Shown here piece by piece: positions 5 through 18,810 of a stretch of 31,209 bases of DNA. A program made the translations under genes and the position numbers. Origin of the DNA: Nitrospirota bacterium (lineage in GTDB: Bacteria > Nitrospirota > Thermodesulfovibrionia > Thermodesulfovibrionales > JdFR-88). The DNA lies in NCBI GenBank assembly GCA_021790695.1, contig JAJYGJ010000034.1, positions 1-31,209 of the forward strand, written 5' to 3'. The notes beneath the pieces are model-generated. The model searched no databases, had not been told where the DNA came from, and was given only the letters and a program-made list of their open reading frames with translations. Numbering within the stretch: the first letter of the stretch is position 1; each line of letters starts with the position of its first letter.

Positions 5-2383
5 ATGAAGGAGGCGGCGCAGCTGACCGACGAATTCATAAGCGTCGAACATCTCCTTTACGCCATAGCCGCCGAGGGCGGGCCGGGCGCCCAGGCCCTG
101 GCCAGGCAGAATGCCACCCCGGATGCCATACTCGACGCCATGCGCGGGATAAGGGGCGCGCAGAAGGTGACCGACCAGAACCCGGAGGAAAAATACCAGG
201 CCCTCGCCCGCTACAGCCGGGACCTGACGGAACTGGCCGCCAAAGGCAAGCTGGACCCCGTCATCGGCAGGGACGAAGAGATAAGACGTCTCATACAGGT
301 CCTTTCAAGGAGAACGAAAAACAACCCCGTCCTCATAGGCGACCCCGGCGTGGGCAAGACCGCCATAGTGGACGGCCTGGCGCAGCGCGTGGTGCAGGGC
401 GACGTGCCGGAGACCCTGAGGAACAAAAAGGTCGTGGCCCTGGACATGGGCGCGCTTATCGCGGGCGCCAAGTACCGGGGAGAATTCGAGGAGCGGTTAA
501 AGGCCGTGCTCAAGGAAATAGAGAAGGCGGAGGGCAGGGTGGTCCTCTTCATAGACGAGATGCACACCATTGTGGGGGCCGGCGCCGCGGAGGGCGCATT
601 GGACGCTTCCAACATGCTCAAGCCGGCCCTGGCCAGGGGAGACCTGCGATGCATCGGGGCCACCACCGTAAACGAATACCGCAAGCACATAGAGAAAGAC
701 CCCGCCCTGGAGAGGCGCTTCCAGCCGATACTCGTCAAGGAACCCGCAGTCGAAGACACGGTCTCCATCCTCCGCGGCCTGAAGGAGCGCTATGAAGTGC
801 ACCACGGCGTGAAGATAAAGGACTCCGCCCTCGTGGCGGCCGCCGCCCTTTCCGACCGCTACATCACGGACAGGTTCCTGCCGGACAAGGCGATAGACCT
901 GATTGATGAGGCCGCCTCGAAGCTGCGGATGGAGATTGACAGCATGCCCGTGGAGCTTGACGAGACGGAGAGGAAGATCAGACAGCTCGAAATCGAAAAA
1001 CAGGGTATGCTCAAGGACGGCTCGCGGGAGGCGAAGGTCCGGCTGGAGGGCATCGGCCGGGAGATCGCGGAGCTTGCCGAACAGAGAAGCAGGCTCCGCT
1101 CCCAGTGGATGAGCGAAAAGGAGATAATCGCGAGGCTAAGGCAGATAAAGGAGCAGATGGAGGACAAGCGGCTCGAGGCCGAACGCGCGGAGCGCGAGGG
1201 GGACCTGGGGAAGGCCGCGGAGCTTAAATACGGAGCGCTGCCTTCGCTCCAGAAACAACTGGATTCCGAGACAAGGAAACTCGCCAAGGCCCAGGTCAAG
1301 AGAAAGATGTTAAAGGAAGTGGTGGACGAGGAGGACGTGGCGCAGATCGTCTCCAAGTGGACCGGCATACCGGTCACGAGGATGCTTGAGACCGAGGTCC
1401 AGAAGCTCCTTAAAATGGAGGAGCGCCTGAGAATGAGGGTGGTCGGGCAGGAGGAGGCGATCGCCGCCGTCTCCAATTCCGTGAGAAGGGCGAGGGCCGG
1501 CGTGCAGGACCCCAACCGGCCGATCGGCTCCTTCATATTCCTGGGCCCGACGGGCGTGGGCAAGACCGAGCTTGCAAAGGCGCTTGCCGAATTCCTGTTC
1601 GACGACGAGGGCGCCATGGTGCGCATAGACATGTCCGAATACCAGGAGAGACACACCGTCTCCCGCCTGATAGGCGCGCCCCCCGGCTACGTGGGCTACG
1701 AGGAGGGCGGCCAGCTTACCGAGGCGGTGCGCCGGAAGCCCTATTCCGTCATTCTCTTTGACGAGATAGAAAAGGCCCACCCCGAGGTCTTCAACCTCCT
1801 CCTGCAGGTACTGGACGACGGCCGCCTGACGGACGGACACGGCCGCATGGTGGATTTCAGGAACGCGGTGATAATACTCACCTCGAACATCGGCAGCGCG
1901 CACATCCAGGAACTGCTCGAGGGGCGAAAGAGGAGGCCGCGAGTCTACTGGGGCCCGCCCGGCGAAAATGAAGAAGAACTGAAAAACAAGATAATGCAGG
2001 ACCTGAAAACGAACTTCAAGCCGGAGTTCTTAAACAGGATCGACGAGATAATCATCTTCAACCCCCTCACGTCCGGGCTCCTGGCGGAAATCGTGGAGAT
2101 ACAGACGAACAGGATGAAACGCTACCTGCTCGAAAAAGGCATCGACATCGCGCTTTCGGCGCGGGCGAAAGAGAGGCTGGCGGAACTGGGGTTCGATCCG
2201 GTCTACGGCGCGCGTCCCCTGAAGCGCGTCATACAGCGGGAGGTCTTAAACCCGCTCGCGATGAAGCTGCTGGAAGGGGCCTTCCAGGAAGGCGACGTCG
2301 TGGAAGTGGACGTGGACAAGACGGGCAAGATAGAGCTTCGCCGGGCGGCGGAAAAAGCCGCTGCCGCGCAGGCCGCAAGCTAG
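5..2383 (+). CDS. clpB: ATP-dependent chaperone ClpB (5'-truncated by window edge)
   Basis: Two AAA+ modules (GDPGVGKT / LFIDE; GPTGVGKT / LFDEIEKAH), coiled-coil middle domain ([12 protein letters not shown]), C-terminal [13 protein letters not shown]. The frame is open to the window start, so the listed Met is probably internal. Confidence 0.97.
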
Positions 2384-2396
2384 GCAGATACAGGAC

Positions 2397-2426
2397 AAAA
2401 GCCCCTCCGGAGGGAGGGGCTTTTTT
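2397..2426. terminator. Bidirectional intrinsic terminator
   Basis: aaaa-gcccctcc-ggag-ggaggggc-tttttt between convergent clpB and 2440..3342. Confidence 0.85.
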
Positions 2427-2439
2427 GGGAGACCGGCCT

Positions 2440-3342
2440 CTAGAAATTGACCCCCACCCCTATCCTGGCCCCATAGATATTGGTCGTGCTGTCAGGCTCG
2501 TAGTAGGGGCTGCCCGCCACCGTGACACCATTTTTGGTCACGTTCACCAGGTCGCTGGCCCCGATCGCCCAGTGCTGATAATAAGGGGTCAGAAAGACAA
2601 AGACCCTGTCCGCATTCACATACCTTTCATAGATATCATAAGTAATGGGCAGTTGCACAACGACCGCCGGGTTTGATCTCAGCTTGAAGTTGGTCTCGTC
2701 CCAGTTTCCCGCCTCGTTTGTTGTCATTCTCATGTTAAACGGTATATCGACCGCGACGTCAGCGCCCGCCGTCCATCTTTCGATCCTACAGACGTAATTA
2801 AGGCCTATGGCGGCGAAATACCAGGAATATTTTTCGATATAATCCGGTGAGACGTCCTCTCCCCTCCACCAGACCCTGCGGCCGATCCCCACGTAAGGCG
2901 CAAGGGTGCCGGCCTCGACGTTAAGGAGCTTGAATCCGAGGTCTCCTTCATAGAGATCGAACCGTTCAGGGGTGGAAAACTTGGCGGGCGTGCACAATCC
3001 GCCGTCGCCGCAGACTGCGCCGTCGTATGTCGCGCCATGCGACCAGGAATAATCCGCGGTGAGCCTGGTCCATAAAATCCCGCTTTCGAACCTGGCCTCA
3101 ATGTCGAGCCCGTTCAGGTAGCCGTAATCCCGGTCCAGGATATCGCCGGCCGTATCCTTTTCCTCGTAATAGAGATAACTGCCGTCATAGGCCCCCATTA
3201 TGGTAAAACCCCGGCCGCCCGCCCCCGGGTCCGCCACCGGATTCCCGGGGCCCGGTGAGAACGCATATGCCAAACCCCCGCCCCTTAAAAACAGGATAAA
3301 AAACAGGGCCGCCGCAACTGCCATTACCCGCATTACTCTCAT
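2440..3342 (-). CDS. Putative outer-membrane beta-barrel protein of unknown function
   Basis: N-terminal signal-peptide-like segment, aromatic-rich alternating strands, C-terminal Phe (GARIGVGVNF). ATG 3342 is preferred because GGAG precedes it; the ORF track extends to 3381. Confidence 0.7.
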   Translation of the reverse strand: MRVMRVMAVAAALFFILFLRGGGLAYAFSPGPGNPVADPGAGGRGFTIMGAYDGSYLYYEEKDTAGDILDRDYGYLNGLDIEARFESGILWTRLTADYSWSHGATYDGAVCGDGGLCTPAKFSTPERFDLYEGDLGFKLLNVEAGTLAPYVGIGRRVWWRGEDVSPDYIEKYSWYFAAIGLNYVCRIERWTAGADVAVDIPFNMRMTTNEAGNWDETNFKLRSNPAVVVQLPITYDIYERYVNADRVFVFLTPYYQHWAIGASDLVNVTKNGVTVAGSPYYEPDSTTNIYGARIGVGVNF

Positions 3343-3627
3343 CAGGATTTCTCCCCCTGTACGTTTTCCCGGCTCCAACAATTTCGCAAGGGTTTTTCAC
3401 TCCCTGTCGGTCTTCCGGGTATTCGAAAATATTCCCCGCCGTTTAAGGCCGCGGAGGTGCGCCCGCCGTCCATTTGAGCTTAAGCGACAGCCTCTAAAAT
3501 CTTAAGCAACGACTCTTGAATTGTCAAAGCATTTCGGTTAAGCTTCATGTGTGGTATAGCGTGTGTGCGGACATCAGGCCGGCGGGGAAACACTCGTATC
3601 AACCGCAGTCCTCAAAAGGAGGGTTTT

Positions 3628-3888
3628 ATGAAGATCGACGTAAATGAATACCGCCAAAAGTACCTGAAGCAAGTGGAGGAGCGAATCATGGCGAAAAAAG
3701 ACACAATCCCCAACTTCACCACGCAGGGCCTTCATGCGGCCATCATGACGGAATTGAACCAGGCCGACGATGAGACGTGGCTTGTCGAGGTCCCGGACGA
3801 CAAGGAAAAGGCCCTGAAACAAGCCGAAGACCGCATCCTGCACTCGATGGAAGAAAACATCGACCTGGGAGTGGGAAACACCTGGTAG
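3628..3888 (+). CDS. Hypothetical 86-aa acidic protein
   Basis: Strong RBS AAGGAGG before ATG 3628 and protein-like composition (MKIDVNEYRQKYL...). No family recognised. Confidence 0.65.
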   Translation: MKIDVNEYRQKYLKQVEERIMAKKDTIPNFTTQGLHAAIMTELNQADDETWLVEVPDDKEKALKQAEDRILHSMEENIDLGVGNTW

Positions 3889-3960
3889 GAAGACCGGTCT
3901 TTTAAACAAACATTTTTCATCATCCGGACTGATCGAAAGGGCATCAGACTGGAAAAAGGG

Positions 3961-4006
3961 CCGGGTGATGGCGGCCAGCCGCCAGCGGCCATCCGCCATC
4001 GCCCGG
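3961..4006. terminator. GC-rich stem-loop between convergent genes (probable terminator or stabiliser)
   Basis: ccgggtgatggcgg ... ccgccatcgcccgg, a 14-bp stem with one G-T pair and no strong U-tract. Confidence 0.45.
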
Positions 4007-4007
4007 T

Positions 4008-4044
4008 CGTGTCATCAAAAAACCACGTGTCATCAAAAAACCAC
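4008..4044. repeat. Perfect 18-bp tandem duplication just downstream of rplS
   Basis: cgtgtcatcaaaaaacca x2. Confidence 0.9.
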
Positions 4045-4045
4045 A

Positions 4046-4396
4046 TTATTTTCTCACCAGCTTATTTTCCTTCAGTTTGGCCGCTTTGCCTTTTTTCTCC
4101 CTGATGAAATAGAGCTTTGCCCGCCTGACATCCCCCTGCCTGACCACCTTGATCTCCTGGATGAAATTGGAATGCAGCGGGAATATCCTTTCCACTCCGA
4201 CCCCGAAGGATATCTTCCTTACCATGAAGGTCTCTCTGATGCTTCCGCCCTTCCTGGCTATGACGATGCCCTCGAAAGGCTGTATCCTCTCCTTGTCCCC
4301 CTCTATGACCTTCATGTAGACGCGGACGGTATCGCCGACGTTAAAAGGGGGGACTTCCCGCTTATACCCCTCTTCCACGCTATTTACCGGGTTCAT
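4046..4396 (-). CDS. rplS: 50S ribosomal protein L19
   Basis: [37 protein letters not shown] motifs; canonical position after trmD. Confidence 0.97.
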
Positions 4397-5138
4397 AATC
4401 TTCCTCCTTTATCTTGCCAATAAGTTCCTGGTCTTTCGGGGTAAGCCCCGCCATCCGGAGAAGTTCCGGTCTCTTCCTGAGGGTGCGCCTCAGGGCCTCC
4501 TTTCTGCGCCACAGGGCGATCTGCCCGTGATTGCCAGACAGCAGGACCTCCGGCACTCTCATCCCGTTCCATTCGGGCGGCCTCGTGTAATGGGGATAGT
4601 CAAGGATACCCCAGGAAAAAGACTCCTCCTTAAGCGAGTCTTCATCTCCAAGCGCCCCCGGCAGAAGCCTCACGACGGCGTCTATTATAACCAAAGCCGG
4701 CAGCTCTCCGCCAGTCAGGACATAATCCCCCGTCGATATCTCCTCGTCCACCAGGCTTGCCCTGACCCTCTCATCAATCCCTTCATACCTGCCGCAGATG
4801 AACAAAAGCCGCCTTTTTCCCTTTTCACCCGAAAGTTCATCGGCCATCCGCTGCGTAAAGGGTTTGCCCTGCGGGCTAAGAAGTATGGTCAGCGTGGGCA
4901 GCCCGTCTCTTTTTGCATATTTTACGGCCTCATACACGGGCTCGGGCTTTATCACCATCCCCGGTCCCCCGCCGTATGGATAATCGTCCACGATCCTGTG
5001 CCGGCCCGCGGCGAAATCCCTCAAATGAAGCACCTCGAAGCCGACCAGCGATTTCTCCGCCGCCCGCCTCATGATGCCCGCCCCCATATACGCCTGGAAT
5101 ATCTCGGGGAAGAGGCTTATGACGGCCAGCCGCATCAT
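4380..5138 (-). CDS. trmD: tRNA (guanine-N1)-methyltransferase
   Basis: [56 protein letters not shown]. Confidence 0.97.
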
Positions 5139-5379
5139 TTCAGGGCAACCAGTTGCAAGTCAGCCAACTGATTGCAAACGATCCGGTTTCAAGCAACCTG
5201 TTCAGGGGAAGATAATTGTCCGGAAAGATGATCATTGCCGCGGTCCTTTGCCTGCAGCCTGCCCGGTCTCCGAAGGCGGGATGACCGGCAGCCTGACGAA
5301 TAAAAAAGGGGGCCTCAAGCCTTTGCCCCCAAAACCGTTTTCTCTTTTTTGTCCCTTCAGGAATTCCTGAGAAAAAAGC

Positions 5380-5610
5380 CTACTCGAGGATTTCGAGAAC
5401 GCAACGCTTGCCCATCTTGGTCCCCGCGGCGCTCAGTATCGTCCTCATGGCCCGCGCCGTCTTGCCCTGTTTGCCTATTACCTTGCCCAGGTCGGCCACA
5501 TCCACTCTCAACTCGAAAACCGTGGTCTTTTCCCCCTGGACTTCGGTGACGGCAACACTGTCCGGCTTGTCCACCAAGGCCTTCGCCATCGTCTCAATCA
5601 GGCTTTTCAT
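5380..5610 (-). CDS. khpA: KH-domain RNA-binding protein (KhpA/YlqC family)
   Basis: [20 protein letters not shown] GxxG KH motif; lies directly after rpsP. Start 5610 chosen; the ORF extends to TTG 5625. Confidence 0.92.
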
Positions 5611-5634
5611 CTTTCCCACCCCCAAGGAAGATTA

Positions 5635-5880
5635 TCAGGCCGAAAGCACGCCCGCCTTGACTAACAATTTTCTGACGGTGTCTGTAGGTTGCGCCCCCTG
5701 TTTGATCCACTTCGCGGCTTTTTCCCCGTCGACCTTGAATTCGAAGGGGTTTTTTTTCGGATCGTAAGTGCCAAGTATCTCCACGAAAGGACCATCGCGG
5801 CGCGCCCTTGAATCGGCCACAACCACCCTGTAAAAGGGGCTCTTGTGGGCGCCAGTCCTCATAAGCCTTATCTTTACCAA
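5635..5880 (-). CDS. rpsP: 30S ribosomal protein S16
   Basis: [34 protein letters not shown]; TTG start with GGAGG RBS. Confidence 0.97.
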
Positions 5881-5932
5881 GCTGAAACCTCCGCATTAAG
5901 AATCTTCCGCACCAAGAATCTAAAGCATAGTA

Positions 5933-5961
5933 ATATTAAAACATTTTTCCGCCAATGTAAA
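5933..5961 (-). promoter_or_regulatory. Probable sigma70 promoter of the rpsP operon
   Basis: Minus strand TTTACA-17 nt-TAATAT. Confidence 0.55.
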
Positions 5962-5994
5962 GACGATTTTTTTATTAAATCCGGGCGATTGCAA

Positions 5995-6022
5995 TTGACA
6001 TAAAAAAACCCTGCGGTAGCAT
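5995..6022 (+). promoter_or_regulatory. Probable sigma70 promoter of the PfpI gene
   Basis: TTGACA-16 nt-TAGCAT, followed by AAGGAGG RBS at about 6056. Confidence 0.55.
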
Positions 6023-6067
6023 GTAATTGAGAGCATTTCCGGTCCATCGCGAATAAGGAGGCGCAAG

Positions 6068-6577
6068 ATGAAGATTTTGATATTGAGCGCGGACGGCTTC
6101 GAGGACCTCGAACTCTTCGTGCCGTACTACCGCTTCATGGAAGAAGGCTTCGACGTCAGCATCGCATCCGGGAAAAAAGAGAAGATAAAAGGCAGGCACG
6201 GTTACGAGATAGCGGCCACGATGACGTTCGACGAGGTAAACCCCGAGGAATATGACATGCTGTTTCTGCCCGGCGGCAAGGCCCCGTCCAAGGTGAGAAA
6301 GGAAGAGGCCGCCCTCCGGATAGCACGCCACTTCATGGACAAGGGGAAGCCCGTCGCCACCATATGCCACGGGCCGCAGATACTCATAAGCGCCGGGGTA
6401 GTCAAGGACAGGCGAATGACGTGCTGGCACGAGGTATCAAAGGAACTGAGGGAGGCGGGGGCGGTTTACGAAGACCGGCAGGTCGTCGTGGACGGAAACC
6501 TGGTCACCTCACGCATGCCGGACGACCTGCCTTACTTCCTTCGAGAGGTGATGAAAAAGACCAGGGTGCCCGCATAA
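6068..6577 (+). CDS. DJ-1/PfpI family protein (type 1 glutamine amidotransferase-like; deglycase/protease)
   Basis: ADGFEDLEL, LFLPGG, ATICHGPQILISA nucleophile elbow, VVDGNLVTSRMPDDL. Confidence 0.93.
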   Translation: MKILILSADGFEDLELFVPYYRFMEEGFDVSIASGKKEKIKGRHGYEIAATMTFDEVNPEEYDMLFLPGGKAPSKVRKEEAALRIARHFMDKGKPVATICHGPQILISAGVVKDRRMTCWHEVSKELREAGAVYEDRQVVVDGNLVTSRMPDDLPYFLREVMKKTRVPA

Positions 6578-9690: not shown

Positions 9691-10980
9691 TTAGACACTA
9701 CCGGCTTTTTTTGTGGCCGGGACGGACCGGAGGCGTTCCATCACCTCCCTGAGCGGAAGCCCGGTCTTTCGGGCCGCCTTCAGGCAGTCTTCGTATTCAG
9801 GGACCTGCCTGCCCCGGGCGCCGGAAAAGGAGGTCTTGAACCTCACCGGGCCGAATTCCGTCTCGATGACCTCTGTTTCCCGGGGCAGGGTCTGCCTGCC
9901 TGCCCGGTGGAATCTGACACCCAGGGTTGTGGTCTCGGAAAATATGATTTCCTTCAGGCGGGGGGCGCGGCCTGGGACGCAAAGACAGGTGATCTTTATC
10001 GCGGGCCTGTTTTTTTTCATGATGACCGGGGTGAGAAAGACGTCCAGGGCGCCGGCCTTGAAGAGCCGTTCCATGAGATGGCCGTATATCTGGGGATTCA
10101 TGTCGTCGATATTGGTCTCGATGACCAGCACTGCGCCGTCATCTCCGGAATCCCCCGCGCCTTTTTCGCAGGGGGCCGTCTTTTCTCCTACAAAGGCCCG
10201 GAGCACGTTCGGGGAGTCCTTGAAATCCATCCTGCCCGCGCCCGAGCCGTAGCCGGCAAGCCTCATGCAGGGCATGGGGGAAAACCCCTTTGCGAGGCCC
10301 TTTATCAGGGCGGCGCCGGTAGGGGTTGTAAGCTCAAAATGGGATCCACCAGGGGATTCATCAGATGGAGGGGGCTGCTGCCCGTAAACGGGGGCGCCCT
10401 GGAGCAGGAGGGCCGTGGCCGGGGCCGGAACGGGGAGCCTGCCGTGGCGGGTGTCCACCGTGCCGCCGCCCAGGTTTACGGGCGATGAATAGACTTCCTC
10501 CACCTTGAGGAGTTTCAGGCAGATGAGCGCTCCGAAGACATCGACAATCGTGTCCGCGCTGCCAAGTTCATGGAGGTGGACCTCCCCGGCCGATTTCATC
10601 CCATGGATTTTCGCCTCCGCATCGAAGAGGCTTTTTATGATGAGAAGCCCCGCTTCCCTGATGTCTTCGGGAAGGGCGCTTTCCTTCACCATCCCCCTTA
10701 TAGCGTCCCATGAAAAGGGCCGCGCGCTGGCGGGCTCTTTCACCTCGAATCTGGTTGCGGAAAGCCCCATGCGCCGGACTTCCCTTGCGCCGATGCGGAC
10801 ATTTTTGAGCGGCATTTTGCCCAAAAGCTCGCTTTCCAGGCGTTTAAAAGACACGCCGGCCGAAAGCCCCGCCCCGATGAACATGTCGCCGCTTATGCCG
10901 GAGGAGCAATCGAGCCACAGGATTTTCTTCCCGGAAGCGGGTTTTGATTTTTGCTCTTGTTTTTGTTTTTGTTTTTTCAA
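9691..10980 (-). CDS. larC: Nickel pincer cofactor biosynthesis protein LarC
   Basis: DCSSGISGDM, VHLHELGSADTIVD, LPVPAPAT, ELTTPTGAA, ETNIDDMNPQ, MKKNRPA, ETTTLGVR, PEYEDC. TTG start overlaps the birA stop. Confidence 0.93.
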   Translation of the reverse strand: MKKQKQKQEQKSKPASGKKILWLDCSSGISGDMFIGAGLSAGVSFKRLESELLGKMPLKNVRIGAREVRRMGLSATRFEVKEPASARPFSWDAIRGMVKESALPEDIREAGLLIIKSLFDAEAKIHGMKSAGEVHLHELGSADTIVDVFGALICLKLLKVEEVYSSPVNLGGGTVDTRHGRLPVPAPATALLLQGAPVYGQQPPPSDESPGGSHFELTTPTGAALIKGLAKGFSPMPCMRLAGYGSGAGRMDFKDSPNVLRAFVGEKTAPCEKGAGDSGDDGAVLVIETNIDDMNPQIYGHLMERLFKAGALDVFLTPVIMKKNRPAIKITCLCVPGRAPRLKEIIFSETTTLGVRFHRAGRQTLPRETEVIETEFGPVRFKTSFSGARGRQVPEYEDCLKAARKTGLPLREVMERLRSVPATKKAGSV

Positions 10981-12008
10981 GCGTCGCCGCTCCTTACGGA
11001 CTGCACCTCGCCCGTTGAAAACCGCAGCCGTCCGGCCCCGGTCGTGAGGACGAGCCTGCCGTCATCGTCTATGCCGGAGGCCGTCCCCGTAAAGGATTCC
11101 CCCTCGGTCTGCACCCTTATCCTTTTGCCTATTGTCACGCAGAGGCTGCGATAGCCCTTCAGGAGATGGGCCTCGGCCTTCGTCCCCTTCCTCAGCAGGC
11201 CGGTCCAGTAGTCGAGTTCCTTGCAGACGGCGGCCGCAAGGGCAGCCCTGTTTACCCGCCTGCCCGTCTCCGCGAGTATCGAGGTCGCCGCGGTCCCCAT
11301 ACCTTTGGGCAGGTCGGTTTTTTTCAGGTTGGCGTTTATGCCGATGCCGGCCACCGCCAGGAGCACCCTGTCCGGGTCGGAGCGGAATTCAAGGAGAATG
11401 CCGCCGATTTTTTTACACCTGCCGTCCGCCTTCGCGGGGGCAATCAGGTCGTTTGGCCATTTAAGGCGGACTTCGAGGCCGGTCTGCCCCTTTATGGCGA
11501 GGGCCGAGGCCAGTCCGGCTGCGAGGGCCAGAAGCGGCGTCCTCCTGGGAGGTATTTCCGGCCGGAGCACCGCGCTCATGTAGACGTTCACTCCCGGCGG
11601 GGAATGCCAGCGCCTCCCCAGTCTGCCCCTGCCCGCGGTCTGGCAATCGGCCAGCACCAGGGCCGACAGGCAGGGCAGAGGGGCCTCGGGAGCGGCCGGG
11701 GGCGGGACAGTCATTTCCCTGAAAGCCGTTTCAAGGGCCAGATCGTTTGTAGAGGACGCATTTTCCCTGAAGACGATTTTGACGCCGGGCAAGCGGCTTT
11801 GAAGCTCGAAGGCCGACAATTCCGGGCCGTCCATCAGCCGGTAGCCCGACTTAGATGCGAGGATCCGATAGCCGCCGGCCTGGAGGCGCCTGATTTTTTT
11901 CCAGACGGCGGACCTTGTTATGCCCAGGGCCGCGGAGAGCGCGGGGCCCGGGACCTCTTTTTGTCCCGGGCCGGAGTCCCTCAGGAGCTTTAAAACCCTT
12001 TCCGGCAA
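10977..12008 (-). CDS. birA: Bifunctional biotin ligase/repressor BirA
   Basis: N-terminal HTH (LSAALGITRSAVWKKIRRL), SSTND, QTAGRGRLGRRWHSP, LKWPNDL, KIGGILLE, GIDDDGRLVL. Confidence 0.93.
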   Translation of the reverse strand: MPERVLKLLRDSGPGQKEVPGPALSAALGITRSAVWKKIRRLQAGGYRILASKSGYRLMDGPELSAFELQSRLPGVKIVFRENASSTNDLALETAFREMTVPPPAAPEAPLPCLSALVLADCQTAGRGRLGRRWHSPPGVNVYMSAVLRPEIPPRRTPLLALAAGLASALAIKGQTGLEVRLKWPNDLIAPAKADGRCKKIGGILLEFRSDPDRVLLAVAGIGINANLKKTDLPKGMGTAATSILAETGRRVNRAALAAAVCKELDYWTGLLRKGTKAEAHLLKGYRSLCVTIGKRIRVQTEGESFTGTASGIDDDGRLVLTTGAGRLRFSTGEVQSVRSGDA

Positions 12009-12015
12009 AACAAGC

Positions 12016-12657
12016 TTATCCTTCCCGGTCCGGGATTACGACCTTTACTTTGCCTTCGAGAAGGGCCTTGAACCGCGCGGCGTCCTCCGCGGAGCCGACG
12101 ATCGATCCGTAGTGCATGGGTATGGCGATCTCCGGTTTAATGTCCAGGGCGGCCCTGGCCGCCTCTTCGGCCGTCATCACATAAGTGCCGGAGACGGGAA
12201 GGAGGGCGATGTCGGCCCTGAAATCTCTCATCTCCGGGATATGGTCCGTGTCTCCTGCGATGTAAATCCTTTTTCCCCCCAGGGTGAAGATATAGCCCAC
12301 CCACTGCCTTTCGCGAGGATGGAATTTCTTGTCGATATTATATGCGGGCACTGCCTGGACGTCGATCCCGGCGGCATTCACCCGGTCGCCCGGTTTCACC
12401 GGCACCGTCTTTATTTTTTTGTTTTTGTGAAATTTTTCAGCGCAGTCGGCCGGGCAGACGATGACGGTCAAGTCCTTGGCTATTTTCTCCGCGTCCTCCG
12501 GGCTGCAGTGGTCGAAGTGCTCATGGGTGACCAGTATGAGGTCGGCTGCGGGGCCGCCCGCCCCGATTTTGAAAGGGTCGGTGTAGACGACCTTGCCTCC
12601 GCCATGAATCCTGAAGGTGTCATGTCCAAGCCAGTGGATGTCCTTGATTATCTCCAT
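12016..12657 (-). CDS. MBL-fold metallo-hydrolase
   Basis: HWLGHD, THEHFDH (HxHxDH), YIAGDT, IPMHYG. Start is uncertain; the ORF extends to 12714, but TGaTATAAT at 12715-12723 suggests a downstream start. Confidence 0.88.
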   Translation of the reverse strand: MEIIKDIHWLGHDTFRIHGGGKVVYTDPFKIGAGGPAADLILVTHEHFDHCSPEDAEKIAKDLTVIVCPADCAEKFHKNKKIKTVPVKPGDRVNAAGIDVQAVPAYNIDKKFHPRERQWVGYIFTLGGKRIYIAGDTDHIPEMRDFRADIALLPVSGTYVMTAEEAARAALDIKPEIAIPMHYGSIVGSAEDAARFKALLEGKVKVVIPDREG

Positions 12658-12766
12658 ATCGGGTTGAGCCGGCAATCGGGCCGCGCAGCAACTCACCTCC
12701 CTTTTTTTCATCACATTATATCAAAAGCGGCGGATTTCAGATATGAACGGCGATGAGGCGGGGGTT

Positions 12767-12797
12767 AAGGGAAGGCCGGATATGCCGGCCTTCCCTT
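12767..12797. terminator. Strong stem-loop downstream of the octaheme gene
   Basis: aagggaaggccgg-atatg-ccggccttccctt, a 13-bp perfect stem. The U-tract is better on the plus strand. Confidence 0.55.
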
Positions 12798-12812
12798 TTC
12801 GGACGGTTTTTT

Positions 12813-14105
12813 TTAAATCCCCCCTGCGGATGCCTTCTGCCTTCTTAATTGCGCGGCCATGCTCTTGATGTCCGTGAGGTCGGTGGCCATCGCGCTCCAG
12901 CCGTACCAGAAGGCGTAGTCCGGGTTTGCATGGAAGGCCCCCTGGAAGGTGCGCATGCGGTGTTCGGAGAACATGACGAAGAGTTTTTGCTCAATGGGGG
13001 TCGGCGCGTTGTGGAAGGTGAGAAGGTCCGGATAGGCGTACGGATAATAGGAGGGTTTCTTCAGGACGCCGTCCTTGTAAAGCGCGGCAACGGTCCTTAT
13101 GGCCTCGGCCATGAGGTGGTCGGAGTCCTTTATGATTTTATCCCCCAGTGCAAGCTGCGATTTGGCGTAGGCGAGCGAGTGGCATCTGGTGCAGACCGTA
13201 AGCATCCTGTCTCTCTCGTGCTGCCAGGAGGGCGCAGTGAGCCTCACGAGATCAGCCGCCTTCACCGCAGCCAGCAGCGCGGTGGGCTTGCCCTGCGGAT
13301 CGAGCACGCCCAGGCCCTTGAGGATCGTCACCTGGTCGGCGGCCCATTGCTTGTCCCCGGGCGGGGGCAGCCGCAACCCCAGAAAGCCCCATGCGGTCCT
13401 TACCTCATGGTTTCCATTCGCCATGTGGCACTCCTGGCAGGTGGGCGCGGCGGCGTCTCTGGGCAGTATGCCCTCCCTCTTCAAGGCGTACCTAACGCCG
13501 TGCTTGGAGCCTTCATACATCTCCCACTGGGGGTGATCAAACCCCGTGTGGCATGTCCTGCAGGCCTGTGGAGACCTTGCCTCTTTCACTGAGAAGAGAT
13601 GCCGGGTGTGGCAGACGTCGCAGGAGGTGATCCCGAAGCCGGGCTGCGTCTTTTTGATTTCCATTATGTCTTGCTTGCTCTTCAAGCCGATCTGGTGGCA
13701 GCCGCCGCAGCCCTTCATCCCTTCGATCATCGCCATGGGCTGCCAGTGGATCGTCGGCATGGCCTTCATCGCCACCCAGGCGAGGGCGTGCTTGCCGCTC
13801 TTGAACTGGTCGAACTGCTTTGGATGGCAGGCCGCGCAGGTCTCGGGCGTGGGTATCTTTGCCTTCGCATAATCGGCGGCCGTTTTGTGCAGGCTTCCGT
13901 GGCAGGTCGGGCAGGCCACGCCGTTTTTGCTGTGTTTGCTCAGGCGCCAGTCGTGCACAATGCCTGGCGAGGTCTTCGAATGGCAGTCGATGCAGGCCTT
14001 TGACCCGGCCTGCGCCGCGGCGTTCTGTGCAACGAACAGACCAGACAGGAAGAGAAACGTTGAAAGGAAAGAAATACTTCGTCTCAAAAAAATACTTCGT
14101 CTCAT
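12813..14105 (-). CDS. Periplasmic octaheme c-type cytochrome, hydroxylamine oxidoreductase (HAO)-like family
   Basis: Signal peptide (..AQNAAA|Q); eight CxxCH (CIDCH, CPTCH, CAACH, CGGCH, CDVCH, CRTCH, CQECH, CTRCH); HAO-type spacing with SCDVCHTRHLFS...ACRTCHTGFDHPQWEMYEGSKHG and C-terminal HANPDYAFWYGW; AGGAGG RBS. Confidence 0.88.
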   Translation of the reverse strand: MRRSIFLRRSISFLSTFLFLSGLFVAQNAAAQAGSKACIDCHSKTSPGIVHDWRLSKHSKNGVACPTCHGSLHKTAADYAKAKIPTPETCAACHPKQFDQFKSGKHALAWVAMKAMPTIHWQPMAMIEGMKGCGGCHQIGLKSKQDIMEIKKTQPGFGITSCDVCHTRHLFSVKEARSPQACRTCHTGFDHPQWEMYEGSKHGVRYALKREGILPRDAAAPTCQECHMANGNHEVRTAWGFLGLRLPPPGDKQWAADQVTILKGLGVLDPQGKPTALLAAVKAADLVRLTAPSWQHERDRMLTVCTRCHSLAYAKSQLALGDKIIKDSDHLMAEAIRTVAALYKDGVLKKPSYYPYAYPDLLTFHNAPTPIEQKLFVMFSEHRMRTFQGAFHANPDYAFWYGWSAMATDLTDIKSMAAQLRRQKASAGGI

Positions 14106-14187: not shown

Positions 14188-14230
14188 ATTTTATTGAAAC
14201 GGTCTTCGGGGCGGTATGATTTAAATCATA
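14188..14230 (-). promoter_or_regulatory. CRP/FNR-type class II promoter for the octaheme gene
   Basis: Perfect palindrome TATGAT-TTAA-ATCATA (14215-14230) centred 29.5 nt upstream of -10 TAAAAT (14188-14193, minus strand), i.e. about -41.5. Confidence 0.75.
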
Positions 14231-14314: not shown

Positions 14315-15334
14315 TTATTTTTTAAAAACCCTCGTCAGCGAAATAAGTGCCCGGTAGCCGGCGGGCGGCGCGCCCGAGGCCCAATGGCCGGTGGCCATGG
14401 CCGCCGAAACGACCCCGAAAAAGACGGCGATTAGCAGGACGGCGTAGAGGAAGGCAGCCTTCCGCGAGAAAACGCGGTCTTTTCCCGCGTCGCCGGCCGG
14501 GAGTTTGCCGAACCCCACAGTCAGTGCGCCCGGCGCGGGACAACCGGCCACGCATGCGAGGCAGCCGTTGCACTCGGGTGTTCTTATGGCCTTCTTCTTA
14601 TCGATCGGGATTGAGGCCGGGCAGTTTTTCACGCATGCGCCGCAATGGATGCAGGCCCTCTCATCCCTCGTTATCCTTGCCGGGCTTAAAAGGCCCAAAA
14701 GCCCCAGAAGCGCCCCGTAGGGGCAGAAATACCTGCACCAGAAATTCCCGTAGAAGAGAGAGCCGATGACAAGCCCCGCCAGAACGACGGCCGCCGTGGC
14801 GCTCAGGTGCTCGAAAAACAGAAGCATCCTCGCGTCCGCGGTCGCCCAGTAAGGCCCGTTCAGAAATGCCGCCAGCGTCCAGGTGGACATCAGGAGGACC
14901 GTAAGGGCAAAAAAGGCGAGCAAGAGGTATTTTACGCTTCGCAGCCAATAATCCACGGACCTGTTCAGTTTGAAATGCCTGCCAAATATCTTCCCTCCCG
15001 TCTTCCAAAGCGCCTCCGACAGCGTCCCGACCGGACATATCCAGCCGCAAAAGCCCTTTTTGAAGAGGACCGAAACCAGCATCGCAGCGGACAGGATCAC
15101 TATCGCGGCCGGATGCACCCGGTCGAATATGCCCGTGGACAACCATAACTTTAACCCCATCAGCCCGCCGATGGGCAGAAAGCCGTCCACCGCCGCAGGC
15201 CCCGGGACCGCCGGGCCATTATTGAGGAAATGGCCCACAGACAAGTAGAGCCGCCAGCCCGCCCATAGACAAAGGAGCATTATGAACGTTTGAACGCCCC
15301 TCCTCAGTCTCGTCACCGCCGTGTTTGCCTGCAT
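14315..15334 (-). CDS. Membrane-bound 4Fe-4S polyferredoxin (NapH/MauN/YccM-like)
   Basis: Several TM helices, two CX3CP motifs (FCGWICPVG, WCRYFCPYG) and two CxxCxxCxxxCP motifs (CIHCGACVKNCP, CNGCLACVAGCP). Confidence 0.88.
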   Translation of the reverse strand: MQANTAVTRLRRGVQTFIMLLCLWAGWRLYLSVGHFLNNGPAVPGPAAVDGFLPIGGLMGLKLWLSTGIFDRVHPAAIVILSAAMLVSVLFKKGFCGWICPVGTLSEALWKTGGKIFGRHFKLNRSVDYWLRSVKYLLLAFFALTVLLMSTWTLAAFLNGPYWATADARMLLFFEHLSATAAVVLAGLVIGSLFYGNFWCRYFCPYGALLGLLGLLSPARITRDERACIHCGACVKNCPASIPIDKKKAIRTPECNGCLACVAGCPAPGALTVGFGKLPAGDAGKDRVFSRKAAFLYAVLLIAVFFGVVSAAMATGHWASGAPPAGYRALISLTRVFKK

Positions 15335-15339
15335 GCATT

Positions 15340-15382
15340 ATTTTAAACGTTCGCCCCGGGGGAAGTTATGATCCAAATCATC
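15340..15382 (-). promoter_or_regulatory. CRP/FNR-type class II promoter for the polyferredoxin gene
   Basis: TATGAT-CCAA-ATCATC (15367-15382) centred 29.5 nt from -10 TAAAAT (15340-15345, minus strand). Confidence 0.7.
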
Positions 15383-15421: not shown

Positions 15422-15464
15422 TATGATATACATCATACCCATGCAGGCAATTCTCATGTAACAT
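15422..15464 (+). promoter_or_regulatory. CRP/FNR-type class II promoter for the reductase-like pair
   Basis: TATGAT-ATAC-ATCATA (15422-15437) centred 29.5 nt from -10 TAACAT (15459-15464); predicted +1 coincides with ATG 15471. Confidence 0.72.
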
Positions 15465-15470
15465 GACAAT

Positions 15471-16319
15471 ATGGATGCAAACGATGTCACTGCCGGGCGG
15501 GCAAGAGGGAGAGTCGCCCTGCGGGTCGGCTCAACGGGGCCCTATTCCTCCGAATTGACCGCGGGCCAGATAGGCGCAATCGCCGATATCGCGGAGCGGT
15601 ATGGTTCGGGCGCCGTGCACGTGACGCCGCGGCAGACAATGGAAATCCCGCATATCGATATCGCGGCGCTGCCGGATGTCACAACGCTCCTTGCGGGCCA
15701 TGGTCTTCATATCGGGTACGCCGGGCGGCGTCCGCGAAACGTGACCGCCTGTTCGCACTGGTGCCTGTATAACGTGGCGCCCATGAGGGACGCCGCCCTG
15801 CAATTGAATTGCCTTCTGAATGAAAATGAAAATGAAAAAATGCCGCTGCCCGGGAAAACCAATATCTCGCTTTCGGGCTGCGGCTTTTCCTGCGTCCGCT
15901 CCCGGACGTCGGATGTCGGCGTGATAGCGCGGTCCGAAATCGTGATCACGGACAAGAAATGCAAAAAGTGCTCCCTTTGCGTCAAGGAGCCGCTTGGATG
16001 CCAGGTGGACGCGATCACGCTGGCCGAAGGAGCAGTGGTGATAGACCGGCAAAAGTGCGTCCGGTGCGGCTTTTGTTCCGGTGTCTGCCGCCCCGGCTCG
16101 ATAATGATGAAATCGAAGAGCTTTGATGTATTTATAGGCGGAAACGGCGGGCTGAAACCGCGCGAGGCGTTTTTATATCGGACGGTTCCCTCCTTGCGTG
16201 AGGCGATGGAATTGATCGGCTCGCTCCTGGAGGGCTACCGGGCCCACGCGCGGGAAGGCGAGCGCATCGGCGATCTGATCGAAAGGGCCGGGATGGAGTG
16301 GCCGGGGCAAAAAACCTGA
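15471..16319 (+). CDS. Sulfite/nitrite reductase-like protein (NIR_SIR-ferr + NIR_SIR + inserted 2[4Fe-4S] ferredoxin; AsrC/Dsr-LP type), subunit 1
   Basis: LTAGQIGAIADIAERYGSGAVHVTPRQ, RNVTACSHWC, SLSGCGFSC, ferredoxin CKKCSLC...C and CVRCGFCSGVC, FIGGNGG, GERIGDLIER. Confidence 0.85.
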   Translation: MDANDVTAGRARGRVALRVGSTGPYSSELTAGQIGAIADIAERYGSGAVHVTPRQTMEIPHIDIAALPDVTTLLAGHGLHIGYAGRRPRNVTACSHWCLYNVAPMRDAALQLNCLLNENENEKMPLPGKTNISLSGCGFSCVRSRTSDVGVIARSEIVITDKKCKKCSLCVKEPLGCQVDAITLAEGAVVIDRQKCVRCGFCSGVCRPGSIMMKSKSFDVFIGGNGGLKPREAFLYRTVPSLREAMELIGSLLEGYRAHAREGERIGDLIERAGMEWPGQKT

Positions 16320-16320
16320 T

Positions 16321-17214
16321 ATGGAAGAGTCCCGCGAGAAATTCACCCTTGAGACGCCGCAGGTCGGGATCATCAGGGGCGTTGCCGCCAGGGACATCGA
16401 GGTCGTGGGGGGCAAGTCCGTCAACCTGAGGGCATCCGCGCGGCCGTACAGGAATGTTTATACCGCGGCCCAGCTTCGGGCCATAAAGTCCGTTGTCGAA
16501 AAATACGGCTCCGGCAAGGTCCACCTGACCCCAAGGCACAATCTTGAGATCCCCGAGGTCGGCCAAAAGAATATAGACAGGGCGCTCAAAGAGCTGTACG
16601 GCGCCGGGCTTTTCCCCGGCGGGGCCGGCTCGTCCGTCAGAAATATTTTTACCTGTCCGGACTGGTGCTCGAAGGCCGTCAGGCCGGTCCAGGAAATAGG
16701 CACCATGGTAAGCAGGAACTTTGGCGACATGGACATGCCCAATAAGGTGACGATATCCTTTGCCGGGTGCTCAAACGCGTGCTCGAGGCCGCAAAACTCG
16801 GATATCGGCATCATCGCCGTGGGAAAAGTGGCGGCCAGCGAGGAGGGATGTCCTGAAGACTGCGCTTCCTGCCTGAGCGTGTGCAGGTTCGGGGCCATTC
16901 GGAAGCTCGACGGGCGCATTATGCTGAATGAAAAATGCGTGGACTGCTGCAAATGCGCCCAGGCTTGCGCACATGGCGGGCTCGGCATTGCCGGGACCGG
17001 CTTCAGGGTCCTTATCGGCGGCAAAGAGGGGACTTCCGTCCGGTTCGGGGTCAAATACGCGGATTTCGTGGAGGATGATTTCGAGATTCTGGAAATAGTG
17101 GACAGGGTGCTGAACTGCTATAGGGAAAAGGCGCGCCTGCGGGACGGAAGCACCCGGAAAAAGGAACGCCTCGCGGAGGTAATGGGCAGGTTGGGCATCG
17201 CGGCCTTCATGTAA
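16321..17214 (+). CDS. Sulfite/nitrite reductase-like protein (same architecture), subunit 2
   Basis: YTAAQLRAIKSVVEKYGSGKVHLTPRHN, RNIFTCPDWC, SFAGCSNAC, ferredoxin CPEDCASCLSVC and CVDCCKCAQAC, LIGGKEG, KERLAEVMGRLG. Starts 1 nt after the previous stop. Confidence 0.85.
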   Translation: MEESREKFTLETPQVGIIRGVAARDIEVVGGKSVNLRASARPYRNVYTAAQLRAIKSVVEKYGSGKVHLTPRHNLEIPEVGQKNIDRALKELYGAGLFPGGAGSSVRNIFTCPDWCSKAVRPVQEIGTMVSRNFGDMDMPNKVTISFAGCSNACSRPQNSDIGIIAVGKVAASEEGCPEDCASCLSVCRFGAIRKLDGRIMLNEKCVDCCKCAQACAHGGLGIAGTGFRVLIGGKEGTSVRFGVKYADFVEDDFEILEIVDRVLNCYREKARLRDGSTRKKERLAEVMGRLGIAAFM

Positions 17215-17245: not shown

Positions 17246-17277
17246 TTTTTTGCCCGCGGCTCAAGCCGCGGGCTTTT
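17246..17277. terminator. Stem-loop terminator between convergent genes
   Basis: gcccgcggc-tcaa-gccgcgggc-tttt (stem 17252-17273). Confidence 0.75.
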
Positions 17278-18713
17278 CATTCCCAGTTCAGCAATCTCTG
17301 TTCCCCGGCGAGGCCCCGTATCGCGGTGACGTCCTGGCTTACTTCAAGGGCGCCCCTGTACTTTCCTTCACGGTCACGGACGGCAAAGTACCTGATGTAA
17401 AGGAACCGTCCATTCATCTGTATCCAGAAATCCGCGCTATCCCTCCGGCCGCTTCTGAATGCATCCAGTATATTCTGGACAGTCCCAACGCTCTTTACGG
17501 GATGGCAGTTCTGGACCTTCCTTCCGATGACGCCGGGGCTGCGGGGAAATATCCTGTCTTTAGTCGCCGAATAATAAACGACCTCATCGTCCTCGTTCAC
17601 GAAGGAGACGTCCACGGGAAGGTGGGTGAGTATCAGGTTGACCTGTTCCGCCGTGATCGACCCCGTATCCAGACTGAGTTTATCCGGATTAAGCGTCCCC
17701 GGTTCTCCGGCCGGTACGGTCTGCCGGGCTGACCCGGATGGCTTCCAGTCCTCCACCGCCTCCAGCCACGCGTATCCTATCTCCTCCTCGCCTTTTTTCA
17801 CTCTGAGCCAGTCTTCATCGGTCAGTGTCTCAAGGGCCATGGGGAAGAGGATATTTTCCTCCTTGTAGATCATGTCATTTATCATCGTAAAGAGCGTCTT
17901 TAGCTCCAGATCGCTCAGCCTGTCCATCTTCGATTTCCCCGAAAGGTGTTTCAGCATGGCCCGGATATCGTCATGAAGGGCCCACATCACCTTCGACGGG
18001 CCGGATATCCCCTTTGCCTCCAGGACGGGAAAGAGCTGGTTTTCCTTTCTTGCATAATGCCTCTCGATGGGGGCAAGCCTGTCAAGGAGTTTTGGCAGGC
18101 CCGAGGGGTCCTTGAGATTGTCCATCTCCCGCATGATCTTCTCCGCGGCCCTGTTTTCAAGCATGAAGGTGTGCACGGGGTGTCCGGCCGGCAGGCCCGG
18201 CGGCGGCGTCTTTTTATCGAGCGATTCCCTGAACACCTCGACATGCACATTGCAAAGCCCTTTTACCTCTTGCTCCGGCATCCCCTCGGATATGAGAGAC
18301 TGCTCCATTTGGGCTATCTCGTAAGGCGAGACCTCTTTCAGAAGATCAAGCAGGCGTTTTTTGAGCAGGTCCGGCGGGACGCCTTTATGCAGGTCCTTTA
18401 TGATGCCTTTCAATATCTCCTGGCGGCCCTCCTGAGGTGGCTGGCCGCCCTCCCGGTTCTCCCGGCCGCATTCAGCGCAGACACCCTGGCAGGTCTGTTT
18501 TTTAATTTCAGCGGCGATCCGGTCTATCAGGTCCGCCGGGTCCATGCCGCCAATGGCGGCGGCCTGCTCAAGTGTTGCGACCCGTCCAATAGTGTTTTTG
18601 AGCACGGGGTTGTCCAGGGCCTTGAAACCGGGGTTTAATTCCATTAGGAATCCCTTCAGAAACGGATAAGCGTCAAGAAGTTCGGATATCTTCGTCTTTG
18701 AGTTCAGGTCCAT
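17277..18713 (-). CDS. DUF1858/DUF438 domain protein with hemerythrin-like and PAS domains
   Basis: N-terminal YPFLKGFLMELNPGFKAL..ATLEQAA (DUF1858-like), EIAQMEQSLISEG..LCNVH (DUF438), GHPVHTFMLEN / HYARKENQLFP / VMWALHDDIR / MIYKEENILFP (hemerythrin-like), LPVDVSFVNEDDEVVYYS..RSPGVIGRKVQNCHP (PAS). Confidence 0.88.
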   Translation of the reverse strand: MDLNSKTKISELLDAYPFLKGFLMELNPGFKALDNPVLKNTIGRVATLEQAAAIGGMDPADLIDRIAAEIKKQTCQGVCAECGRENREGGQPPQEGRQEILKGIIKDLHKGVPPDLLKKRLLDLLKEVSPYEIAQMEQSLISEGMPEQEVKGLCNVHVEVFRESLDKKTPPPGLPAGHPVHTFMLENRAAEKIMREMDNLKDPSGLPKLLDRLAPIERHYARKENQLFPVLEAKGISGPSKVMWALHDDIRAMLKHLSGKSKMDRLSDLELKTLFTMINDMIYKEENILFPMALETLTDEDWLRVKKGEEEIGYAWLEAVEDWKPSGSARQTVPAGEPGTLNPDKLSLDTGSITAEQVNLILTHLPVDVSFVNEDDEVVYYSATKDRIFPRSPGVIGRKVQNCHPVKSVGTVQNILDAFRSGRRDSADFWIQMNGRFLYIRYFAVRDREGKYRGALEVSQDVTAIRGLAGEQRLLNWE

Positions 18714-18766: not shown

Positions 18767-18810
18767 ATTATACGGGGTGAGGAGGGCGGGGTTGTATGAT
18801 TTAGATCAGG
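18767..18810 (-). promoter_or_regulatory. CRP/FNR-type class II promoter for the DUF438 gene
   Basis: TATGAT-TTAG-ATCAGG (18795-18810, overlapping the nagA stop) centred 30.5 nt from -10 TATAAT (18767-18772, minus strand). Confidence 0.6.

Follow-up and report, generated by a model that had tools for sequence, protein, structure and literature searches.

Siroheme-containing reductases take a central place in the cycling of sulfur and nitrogen, and the cysteine motif CX5C...CX3C is used as a diagnostic in their annotation. Among the closest described systems are the C-terminal half of Fsr (PDB 7np8/7npa) and the group III Dsr-LP proteins, AsrC, and DsrAB with the cluster motif CX5CXnCX3C in DsrA and CXnCCX3C in DsrB (Fsr structure paper). 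Here, a tandem gene pair, designated alpha and beta, is described on a 31,209-nucleotide stretch of DNA (the window; assembly GCA_021790695.1, contig JAJYGJ010000034.1, positions 1 to 31,209) of a Nitrospirota bacterium of the Thermodesulfovibrionales. As judged by sequence comparison, the pair is an alpha/beta duplication of its own within the siroheme reductase family, whose cluster motif and pocket are both private to it; no description of it was found in the papers searched. Neither subunit keeps the diagnostic motif, although the clade shows strong conservation across bacteria and archaea.

The reading favoured here, to which we give roughly even chances, is that of a cytoplasmic heteromeric siroheme-type alpha-beta reductase which would convert nitrite and/or hydroxylamine to ammonium and be co-regulated with nitrogen-oxide genes. 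The pairing of the genes, the clade, the motifs and the common box with the genes under it are shown by the sequence data, whereas siroheme binding, the heterodimer, the substrate, the electron donor and the leaderless transcript are what we infer in the following.

Two coupled paralogues with a shortened cluster motif

The alpha gene (15471..16319, plus strand) encodes 282 amino acids and the beta gene (16321..17214, plus strand) 297 amino acids; the TGA stop codon of alpha is followed by a single base and then by the ATG of beta, and the two proteins are paralogues with 32% identity. Both belong to the NIR_SIR superfamily, as NIR_SIR_ferr (66-73 bits, cut-off 27) and NIR_SIR (47 bits, cut-off 24) score above the Pfam cut-offs, and each contains an inserted two-cluster ferredoxin with eight conserved cysteines, located at 15960..16088 (plus strand) in alpha, where the cysteines are arranged as CX2CX2CX6C and CX2CX2CX3C, and at 16849..16968 (plus strand) in beta. 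As a hydrophobic N-terminus is absent from both sequences, the proteins are probably cytoplasmic.

The first cysteine motif of the presumed siroheme-coupled [4Fe-4S] site is shortened in both subunits, to CSHWC in alpha (15750..15764, plus strand) and CPDWC in beta (16654..16668, plus strand). The second motif is CX3C, namely CGFSC in alpha (15879-15893; C137-X3-C141) and CSNAC in beta (16768-16782; C150-X3-C154), and is preceded by the stretches PGKTN (15849-15863) and PNKVT (16738-16752) respectively, so that the two combined segments span 15849..15893 and 16738..16782 on the plus strand. In each stretch one lysine is kept (K129 in alpha, K142 in beta). All motif positions were confirmed by translation of the exact coordinates. 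An original prediction made from the letters of the window had proposed tandem coupled paralogues of this size with NIR_SIR-type domains and an inserted ferredoxin, a CX3C first motif with Trp, a CX3C second motif and an altered basic stretch; the open reading frames (ORFs) with their one-base spacing, the Pfam matches and the translations bear this out in every part, with the second substrate lysine gone in both proteins.

Conservation was assessed on alignments of 32 alpha and 20 beta homologues. Invariant residues of alpha include R54, R89, C94, S95, W97, C98, K129, C137 and C141 together with all eight cysteines of the insert, while R18 is nearly invariant; in beta, no variation is seen at R37, R72, R107, C112, C116, K142, T144, C150, C154 or any of the eight cysteines of the insert, and the aromatic residue of the first motif is Trp in the bacterial and Tyr in the archaeal copies. 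Since the motif cysteines are invariant throughout the two alignments, the motif features are not a matter of chance.

Phylogenetic position

A profile of alpha run against 1.84 billion representatives recovered one full-length alpha representative at 482 bits, with the next match at 192 bits. Among the 150 best matches, CxxWC together with the missing second lysine was confined to the alpha entries and the beta representative; the others have a longer first-motif spacing and K-x-K, with the exception of a small group carrying a different, Trp-less short first motif. The search for CxxWC...CX3C which the original prediction had suggested as a check hence returns a pattern private to the pair among these relatives. 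The ten nearest other proteins checked are unassigned Dsr-LP-type proteins, and the closest solved relatives are two Fsr structures, followed by DsrB (E 1e-17 by sequence; E 2e-16 by fold, searched with the alpha model).

The same singularity could be taken to mean that CxxWC no longer supports a siroheme-coupled cluster and that the pair is an iron-sulfur module for electron transfer or sensing, or binds another tetrapyrrole. None of the 150 nearest relatives offers a precedent for CX3C with Trp, and CobG, which represents NIR_SIR proteins that work without siroheme, gives weak matches. The strong conservation of the four motif cysteines and of the anion-binding Arg and Lys residues would, however, be hard to explain without a substrate site, and the first motif of DsrB varies as well (CXnCCX3C) in an active enzyme, so that we regard such a loss of the coupled cluster as very improbable.

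A maximum-likelihood tree of 53 rows, with which a quick tree of 108 rows agrees, gives high support to alpha (100/100), beta (100/99) and the alpha plus beta split (99/97). As sister clades, the two stand outside AsrC, DsrA, DsrB and Fsr, which answers the phylogenetic check that had been proposed; their nearest neighbours are Fsr-like C-terminal halves and two unnamed proteins (wider group 94/78), and DsrA and DsrB of the same genome are far from the pair. The archaeal copies branch first in both subtrees; the duplication is therefore older than the dispersal of the pair, which has moved as one unit. The clade would add a second, independent alpha/beta duplication to the history that produced DsrAB.

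Comparison with named systems

The C-terminal half of Fsr is the best match in sequence and in fold as well as the nearest clade, and it has, like the group III Dsr-LP proteins, the single NIR_SIR repeat with a two-cluster ferredoxin insert that is found in each subunit of the pair; an aSir-type Arg and three of four anion-binding residues are also common to both. In contrast to Fsr, the pair is without the F420H2-oxidase (FrhB-like) half, no such domain being present in either short chain, and consists of two distinct paralogous subunits where Fsr is a homodimer, while the first motif is CxxWC instead of CX5C and the equivalent of Fsr Lys462 is lost. In subgroups a-d of group III Dsr-LP, the first, second, third or no residue of the anion-binding set is missing, but never the fourth (PMC3448663), which is the one that the pair misses. 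Of the siroheme-[4Fe-4S] motif and the peripheral and additional [4Fe-4S] clusters that characterise this group, the pair has an eight-Cys insert, conserved in its own homologues, and the siroheme motif in shortened form only.

With DsrAB, whose cofactors lie at the heterodimer interface, the pair has in common the tandem paralogous alpha/beta genes, the ferredoxin insert and, through DsrB, a departure from CX5C. However, the subunits are 100-140 residues shorter, the insert is of the two-cluster type and CX3C(Trp)...CX3C in both subunits is neither the DsrA nor the DsrB motif. The pair scores 48.8 and 58.3 bits against DsrA TIGR02064 (cut-off 392.85) and 77 and 78.1 bits against DsrB TIGR02066 (cut-off 341.5), a dsrC or dsrMK context was not found around it, and the true DsrAB of the genome is encoded on another contig. 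Scores and clade alike sustain the claim that the pair is distinct from DsrAB.

AsrC has a similar size and domain plan and lends its name to database entries of homologues, but the pair reaches only 90.9 and 63.4 bits against TIGR02912 (cut-off 324.1) and falls into a different clade, and AsrA/AsrB-type domains were not found among its scanned neighbours. NirA and NirB, in turn, differ from the pair in that two NIR_SIR repeats, with CX5C, are carried on a single chain; the scores of alpha and beta against the NirB, NirA and CysI NCBIfam models are below those against AsrC, DsrB and DsrA, and far under the cut-offs. The proposed role of the pair would nevertheless be similar to that of NirBD.

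Distribution and pairing

A word-indexed search yielded 98 alpha homologues of 51-79% identity, nearly all metagenomic, which in the databases are unlabelled or named AsrC or DsrAB. A scan of one genome per species gave 23 loci, mostly from metagenome-assembled genomes (MAGs) of Nitrospirota/Thermodesulfovibrionales, with two Deltaproteobacteria-type and three archaeal MAGs, the latter from Hydrothermarchaeota plus a bin labelled Methanobacteriota. In the phylum, alpha is present in 7 of 401 sampled genomes across several families, and the pair is therefore rare and patchy. A beta orthologue stands 3' of alpha in every related locus of sufficient length, and with two exceptions among 21 loci the gap or overlap between them measures -14 to +2 nt; as to the co-occurrence that was to be checked, pairs and not singletons are the rule. 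Longer fused relatives were absent at E up to 1e-30, which by this search is weak evidence.

Studies on Hydrothermarchaeota have put such genes under AsrC/Fsr-C and stated the canonical CX5C. The database names AsrC and DsrAB can wrongly assign sulfite reduction to uncultured Nitrospirota and Hydrothermarchaeota.

Prediction of a heterodimer

The alpha/beta heterodimer that had been predicted gains support from a complex model, which scored 0.84 when the best of three controls scored 0.00; this mark was attained in 58 of 80 solved complexes and in 2 of 110 mismatched pairs. Three runs had at least 80% of contacts in common, and the pLDDT (predicted local distance difference test) value of the partners was at least 79. 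The confident interface includes residues 92-97 and 138-146 of alpha and 110-119 and 151-159 of beta, which are the segments of the cysteine motifs, in an arrangement as in DsrAB and the Fsr dimer. Since similar complexes, namely DsrAB and Fsr, have been solved, the model may in part reflect memory; it shows likeness rather than proof, with conserved gene pairing and translational coupling as independent support. Taken together, conserved pairing and the complex model suggest tandem paralogues that form a heterodimer in the manner of DsrAB.

Whether both subunits would be catalytic is a separate matter. Precedent for a single catalytic subunit with a structural or electron-transfer partner, which would be compatible with any substrate, exists in DsrAB of D. 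vulgaris, where one tetrapyrrole site is inactive (Fsr structure paper); moreover, beta is better conserved than alpha (mean column identity of 69% versus 60%) and shows an invariant Thr where alpha is variable, at the position of the lost lysine. On the other hand, the four motif cysteines, the substrate Arg pair, the aSir-type Arg and the first Lys are invariant or nearly so in both subunits, and we consider such a division of labour somewhat unlikely.

Active-site residues and substrate

The active site was mapped by HMMER alignment to Fsr, drawing on the Fsr structure paper for the role of each residue. R18, R89 and K129 of alpha, and R37, R107 and K142 of beta, correspond to Arg355, Arg423 and Lys460 of Fsr, while R54 of alpha and R72 of beta align with the aSir-type Arg388. 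The position of Fsr Lys462 is variable in alpha, with Asn (N131) in the protein encoded here, and is the invariant Thr (T144) in beta. This fourth substrate residue is reported to be fully conserved across all sulfite reductases (Susanti and Mukhopadhyay 2012, PMC3448663), plant nitrite reductase has Asn226 at the equivalent position (title of the PDB entry of the N226K mutant), and in FsrII a Dsr-LP-type domain whose anion pocket is altered carries out the reduction of nitrite and hydroxylamine (PMC9295563). The replacement of the second substrate lysine, as in plant NiR, is the likeness of the pair to the group of NirA, NirB, FsrII and FNiR; in FsrII the Arg residues are altered, in the pair the Lys position instead.

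A reductase of sulfite, or of another sulfur or selenium oxyanion, in detoxification or assimilation such as Fsr, AsrC and the small alSiR is suggested by the nearest solved and named relatives, which are sulfite reductases, by the hosts, which are DsrAB-bearing organisms of the sulfur cycle, and by the retention of three of four anion-binding residues and the aSir-type Arg. The nitrogen link would then be due to a general anaerobic or redox regulator. Promiscuity is common among siroheme enzymes and the hosts belong to the sulfur cycle, so that sulfite retains a share of the probability. But the fourth basic residue, reported as fully conserved in sulfite reductases (PMC3448663), is gone in both subunits, no sulfur-metabolism genes were seen in the neighbourhood or under the regulatory box described below, and sulfide is already made by DsrAB of the hosts; a dedicated sulfite reductase is therefore judged unlikely.

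A putative CRP/FNR-family regulon

The support for nitrite over sulfite comes largely from what lies upstream of alpha. The palindrome TATGATATACATCATA (15422..15437), a putative site for an activator of the CRP/FNR family, has its centre 41.5 nt 5' of the alpha ATG and is followed by the -10-like hexamer TAACAT (15459..15464, plus strand; -12..-7 relative to the ATG), with TAnnAT at the same place in loci L001, L004, L013 and L014. The 16-bp palindrome TATGAT-N4-ATCATA is found 5' of alpha in nearly all Nitrospirota loci, its centre being 41.5-42.5 nt before the start codon in the window and in most loci. From the distance of the box and the hexamer, the geometry would therefore be that of a class II CRP/FNR-dependent promoter with a transcript beginning at the ATG, and the alpha mRNA is probably leaderless; a Shine-Dalgarno sequence is absent from alpha, and beta has GGAGG in most loci. 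Leaderless promoters that depend on an activator could be studied cleanly on this conserved box, which lies at -41.5 before a start codon.

A second palindrome, TATGATCCAAATCATC (15367..15382), is centred 40.5 nt before the start codon of a divergent gene for a NapH/NosR-like membrane polyferredoxin (Fer4_5; 14315..15334, minus strand), and an exact palindrome (14215-14230) precedes the gene of an octahaem HAO-family cytochrome c (12813..14105, minus strand). In the genome, the exact 14-mer occurs six times with 0.7 expected, and four of the occurrences are intergenic; three are in the window, two of them in the intergene of alpha and the NapH-like gene and one before the octahaem cytochrome. 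Another contig (C54) has an exact box at 5984-5999, 5' of the gene for a second multihaem cytochrome of the HAO family. A degenerate box with two mismatches (18795-18810) precedes the gene of a 478-aa protein with the order DUF1858-DUF438-hemerythrin-PAS_10 (17277..18713, minus strand), which is convergent with beta. The box suggests a small regulon that comprises alpha-beta, the NapH-like gene and both HAO-family cytochromes, perhaps with the hemerythrin-PAS gene as a further member; the distances of 41.5 and 40.5 nt to the start codons of alpha and the NapH-like gene point to leaderless transcripts that depend on an activator.

In 331 kb of related loci, all boxes are intergenic and precede alpha, NapH-like genes, and a unit of a dihaem cytochrome c and a haem-copper oxidase. 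Five near-complete pair-bearing genomes contain two to five exact 16-mers each, always with one at alpha. In one of the pair-bearing genomes (G166) a box is located before an operon encoding a NapA-like molybdoenzyme with a twin-arginine translocation (TAT) signal and NapG-like, NapH-like and HAO-like proteins, in another (G208) before an unlinked NapH-like gene with the spacing seen at alpha, and NapH-like genes with the same box occur in L025 and L029. The Deltaproteobacteria-type loci have TTGAC-N4-GTCAA before alpha, alone in L027 and in L028 as the upstream one of two sites, the second being half-FNR-like; TTGAC-N4-GTCAA is the HcpR box predicted by Rodionov et al. for nitrosative-stress regulons (PMC1274295). 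Palindromic of the TGA-N6-TCA type, at a class II distance and common to nitrogen-oxide genes, the box has the features of an HcpR/FNR-type site. That HAO-like and NapH-like genes and the nap-like operon are under the same box as the pair lends weight to the earlier view that the substrate may be nitrite or NO and not sulfite.

Two exact 14-mers in secDF and cheRW junctions were set aside as apparently accidental, and two-mismatch boxes in the genome, mostly before unrelated genes (pseudouridine synthase, RsmB, DUF3373), were treated as noise. The genome has three genes of the CRP family, and a CRP/FNR-family protein with an FNR-like ETSIR recognition helix and without an N-terminal Cys cluster is encoded on contig C193 (76-885; L045); as regulator of the box it is a candidate. 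As a regulon marker, hcp was discarded, one Prismane gene being cut by a contig end and the other being placed in a CODH-like context without a box.

Proposed function

In the reading of a nitrite and/or hydroxylamine reductase, alpha and beta would be the subunits of a cytoplasmic siroheme-[4Fe-4S] enzyme arranged like the Fsr-C dimer or DsrAB, as alpha-beta or possibly alpha2-beta2 with up to two siroheme-[4Fe-4S] sites. One coupled cofactor site would be present per subunit, and electrons would enter through its ferredoxin insert of two clusters, with two Arg, the aSir-type Arg and one Lys kept in the cofactor site, the second Lys lost and the cluster ligated through CxxWC...CX3C. A CRP/FNR-family, HcpR-like regulator acting at -41.5 would switch on the operon, and the pair would be induced together with periplasmic nap-like and HAO-like nitrate/nitrite enzymes and the NapH-like membrane polyferredoxin, so that nitrite and/or hydroxylamine reaching the cytoplasm could be turned into ammonium. 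NapH has its iron-sulfur clusters on the cytoplasmic side. As the most consistent co-regulated partner, the NapH-like protein may, speculatively, be the quinol-linked donor.

Several observations weigh against this function. The archaeal loci are without the box, and the nitrogen-cycle neighbour is absent from most loci. CRP/FNR-type boxes also serve oxygen and redox regulons, and the haem-copper oxidase could point to oxygen. Many siroheme enzymes, Fsr included, reduce both sulfite and nitrite (Fsr structure paper), and for this reason the pocket residues leave the substrate unfixed. The model of the alpha monomer is of moderate confidence, at a pLDDT of 74.6 and of less than 50 in the ferredoxin insert.

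Co-occurrence with NapA in the phylum was no guide, since only one of the seven alpha-bearing genomes among the 401 scored at the threshold used, and the nap-like gene of G166 was missed because it matches in pieces. In six pair-bearing genomes, the NIR_SIR proteins found were DsrA, DsrB, alpha and beta only, and in the five of these that were searched a convincing match to NrfA was absent. If the pair reduces nitrite or hydroxylamine, it would explain cytoplasmic nitrogen-oxide handling in organisms with nap-like and HAO-like genes in which no NrfA, NirB or NirA was found here. A wider proposal, which is tentative and in its entirety rather doubtful, is that of a previously unrecognised class of heterodimeric siroheme enzymes with a CxxWC-ligated catalytic cluster, fed from the quinone pool through the NapH-like polyferredoxin and acting as the cytoplasmic nitrite/hydroxylamine reductase that has yet to be found in nap-/HAO-type nitrate ammonifiers of the sulfur-cycling Thermodesulfovibrionia and Hydrothermarchaeota.

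Gene neighbourhood and host genomes

Domains of asrAB, dsrC and siroheme synthesis were absent from the neighbouring ORFs scanned, which outside 13-20 kb comprised those of at least 150 aa, in agreement with the original prediction that no such genes are adjacent. The hemerythrin-PAS protein convergent with beta perhaps belongs to the same island as a sensor of gas or redox state. A cluster of 900-aa proteins that appeared as a conserved neighbour in fact consists of unrelated PAS kinases. The sequencing runs listed as containing this stretch are DNA runs from a single mine-drainage study.

In related loci, a cytochrome P460 gene is located directly 3' of beta (L004 9961-10482, L020 2085-2606, L022 6678-7199) or a CopD-cytochrome b5 fusion is convergent with beta (L015 10884-11852, L025 2040-2945, L026 11732-12649, L029 8359-9288). 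Directly 5' of alpha, a small ORF of 100-154 aa is found in L019 (103-561), L029 (6161-6625) and L012 (135-437), which has no Pfam match and a PCCGG-type Cys motif and is preceded by the box in L019 and L029; it could encode an accessory redox protein of the operon.

The nap-like operon of G166 (contig C1, L063) extends over 376-6456 on the minus strand with its box near 6664. Its NapA-like protein of 806 aa reaches 654 bits against a cut-off of 904, and the HAO-like cytochrome of the operon has 455 aa. A shorter NapA-like class is present in several Nitrospirota genomes as open frames of about 560-860 aa with 447-559 bits, true NapA scoring about 1400 bits.

The haem-copper oxidase and dihaem cytochrome c under the box stand beside a NapH-like gene, and the unit is located at 10762-12840 (minus strand) in L029, 4550-6636 in L004 and 13351-14097 in L015 and is also present in L022. 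With a subunit I of 466 aa that is remote to CcoN/CtaD (31-34 bits, cut-offs near 600), it may represent an undescribed type of NO reductase or oxidase.

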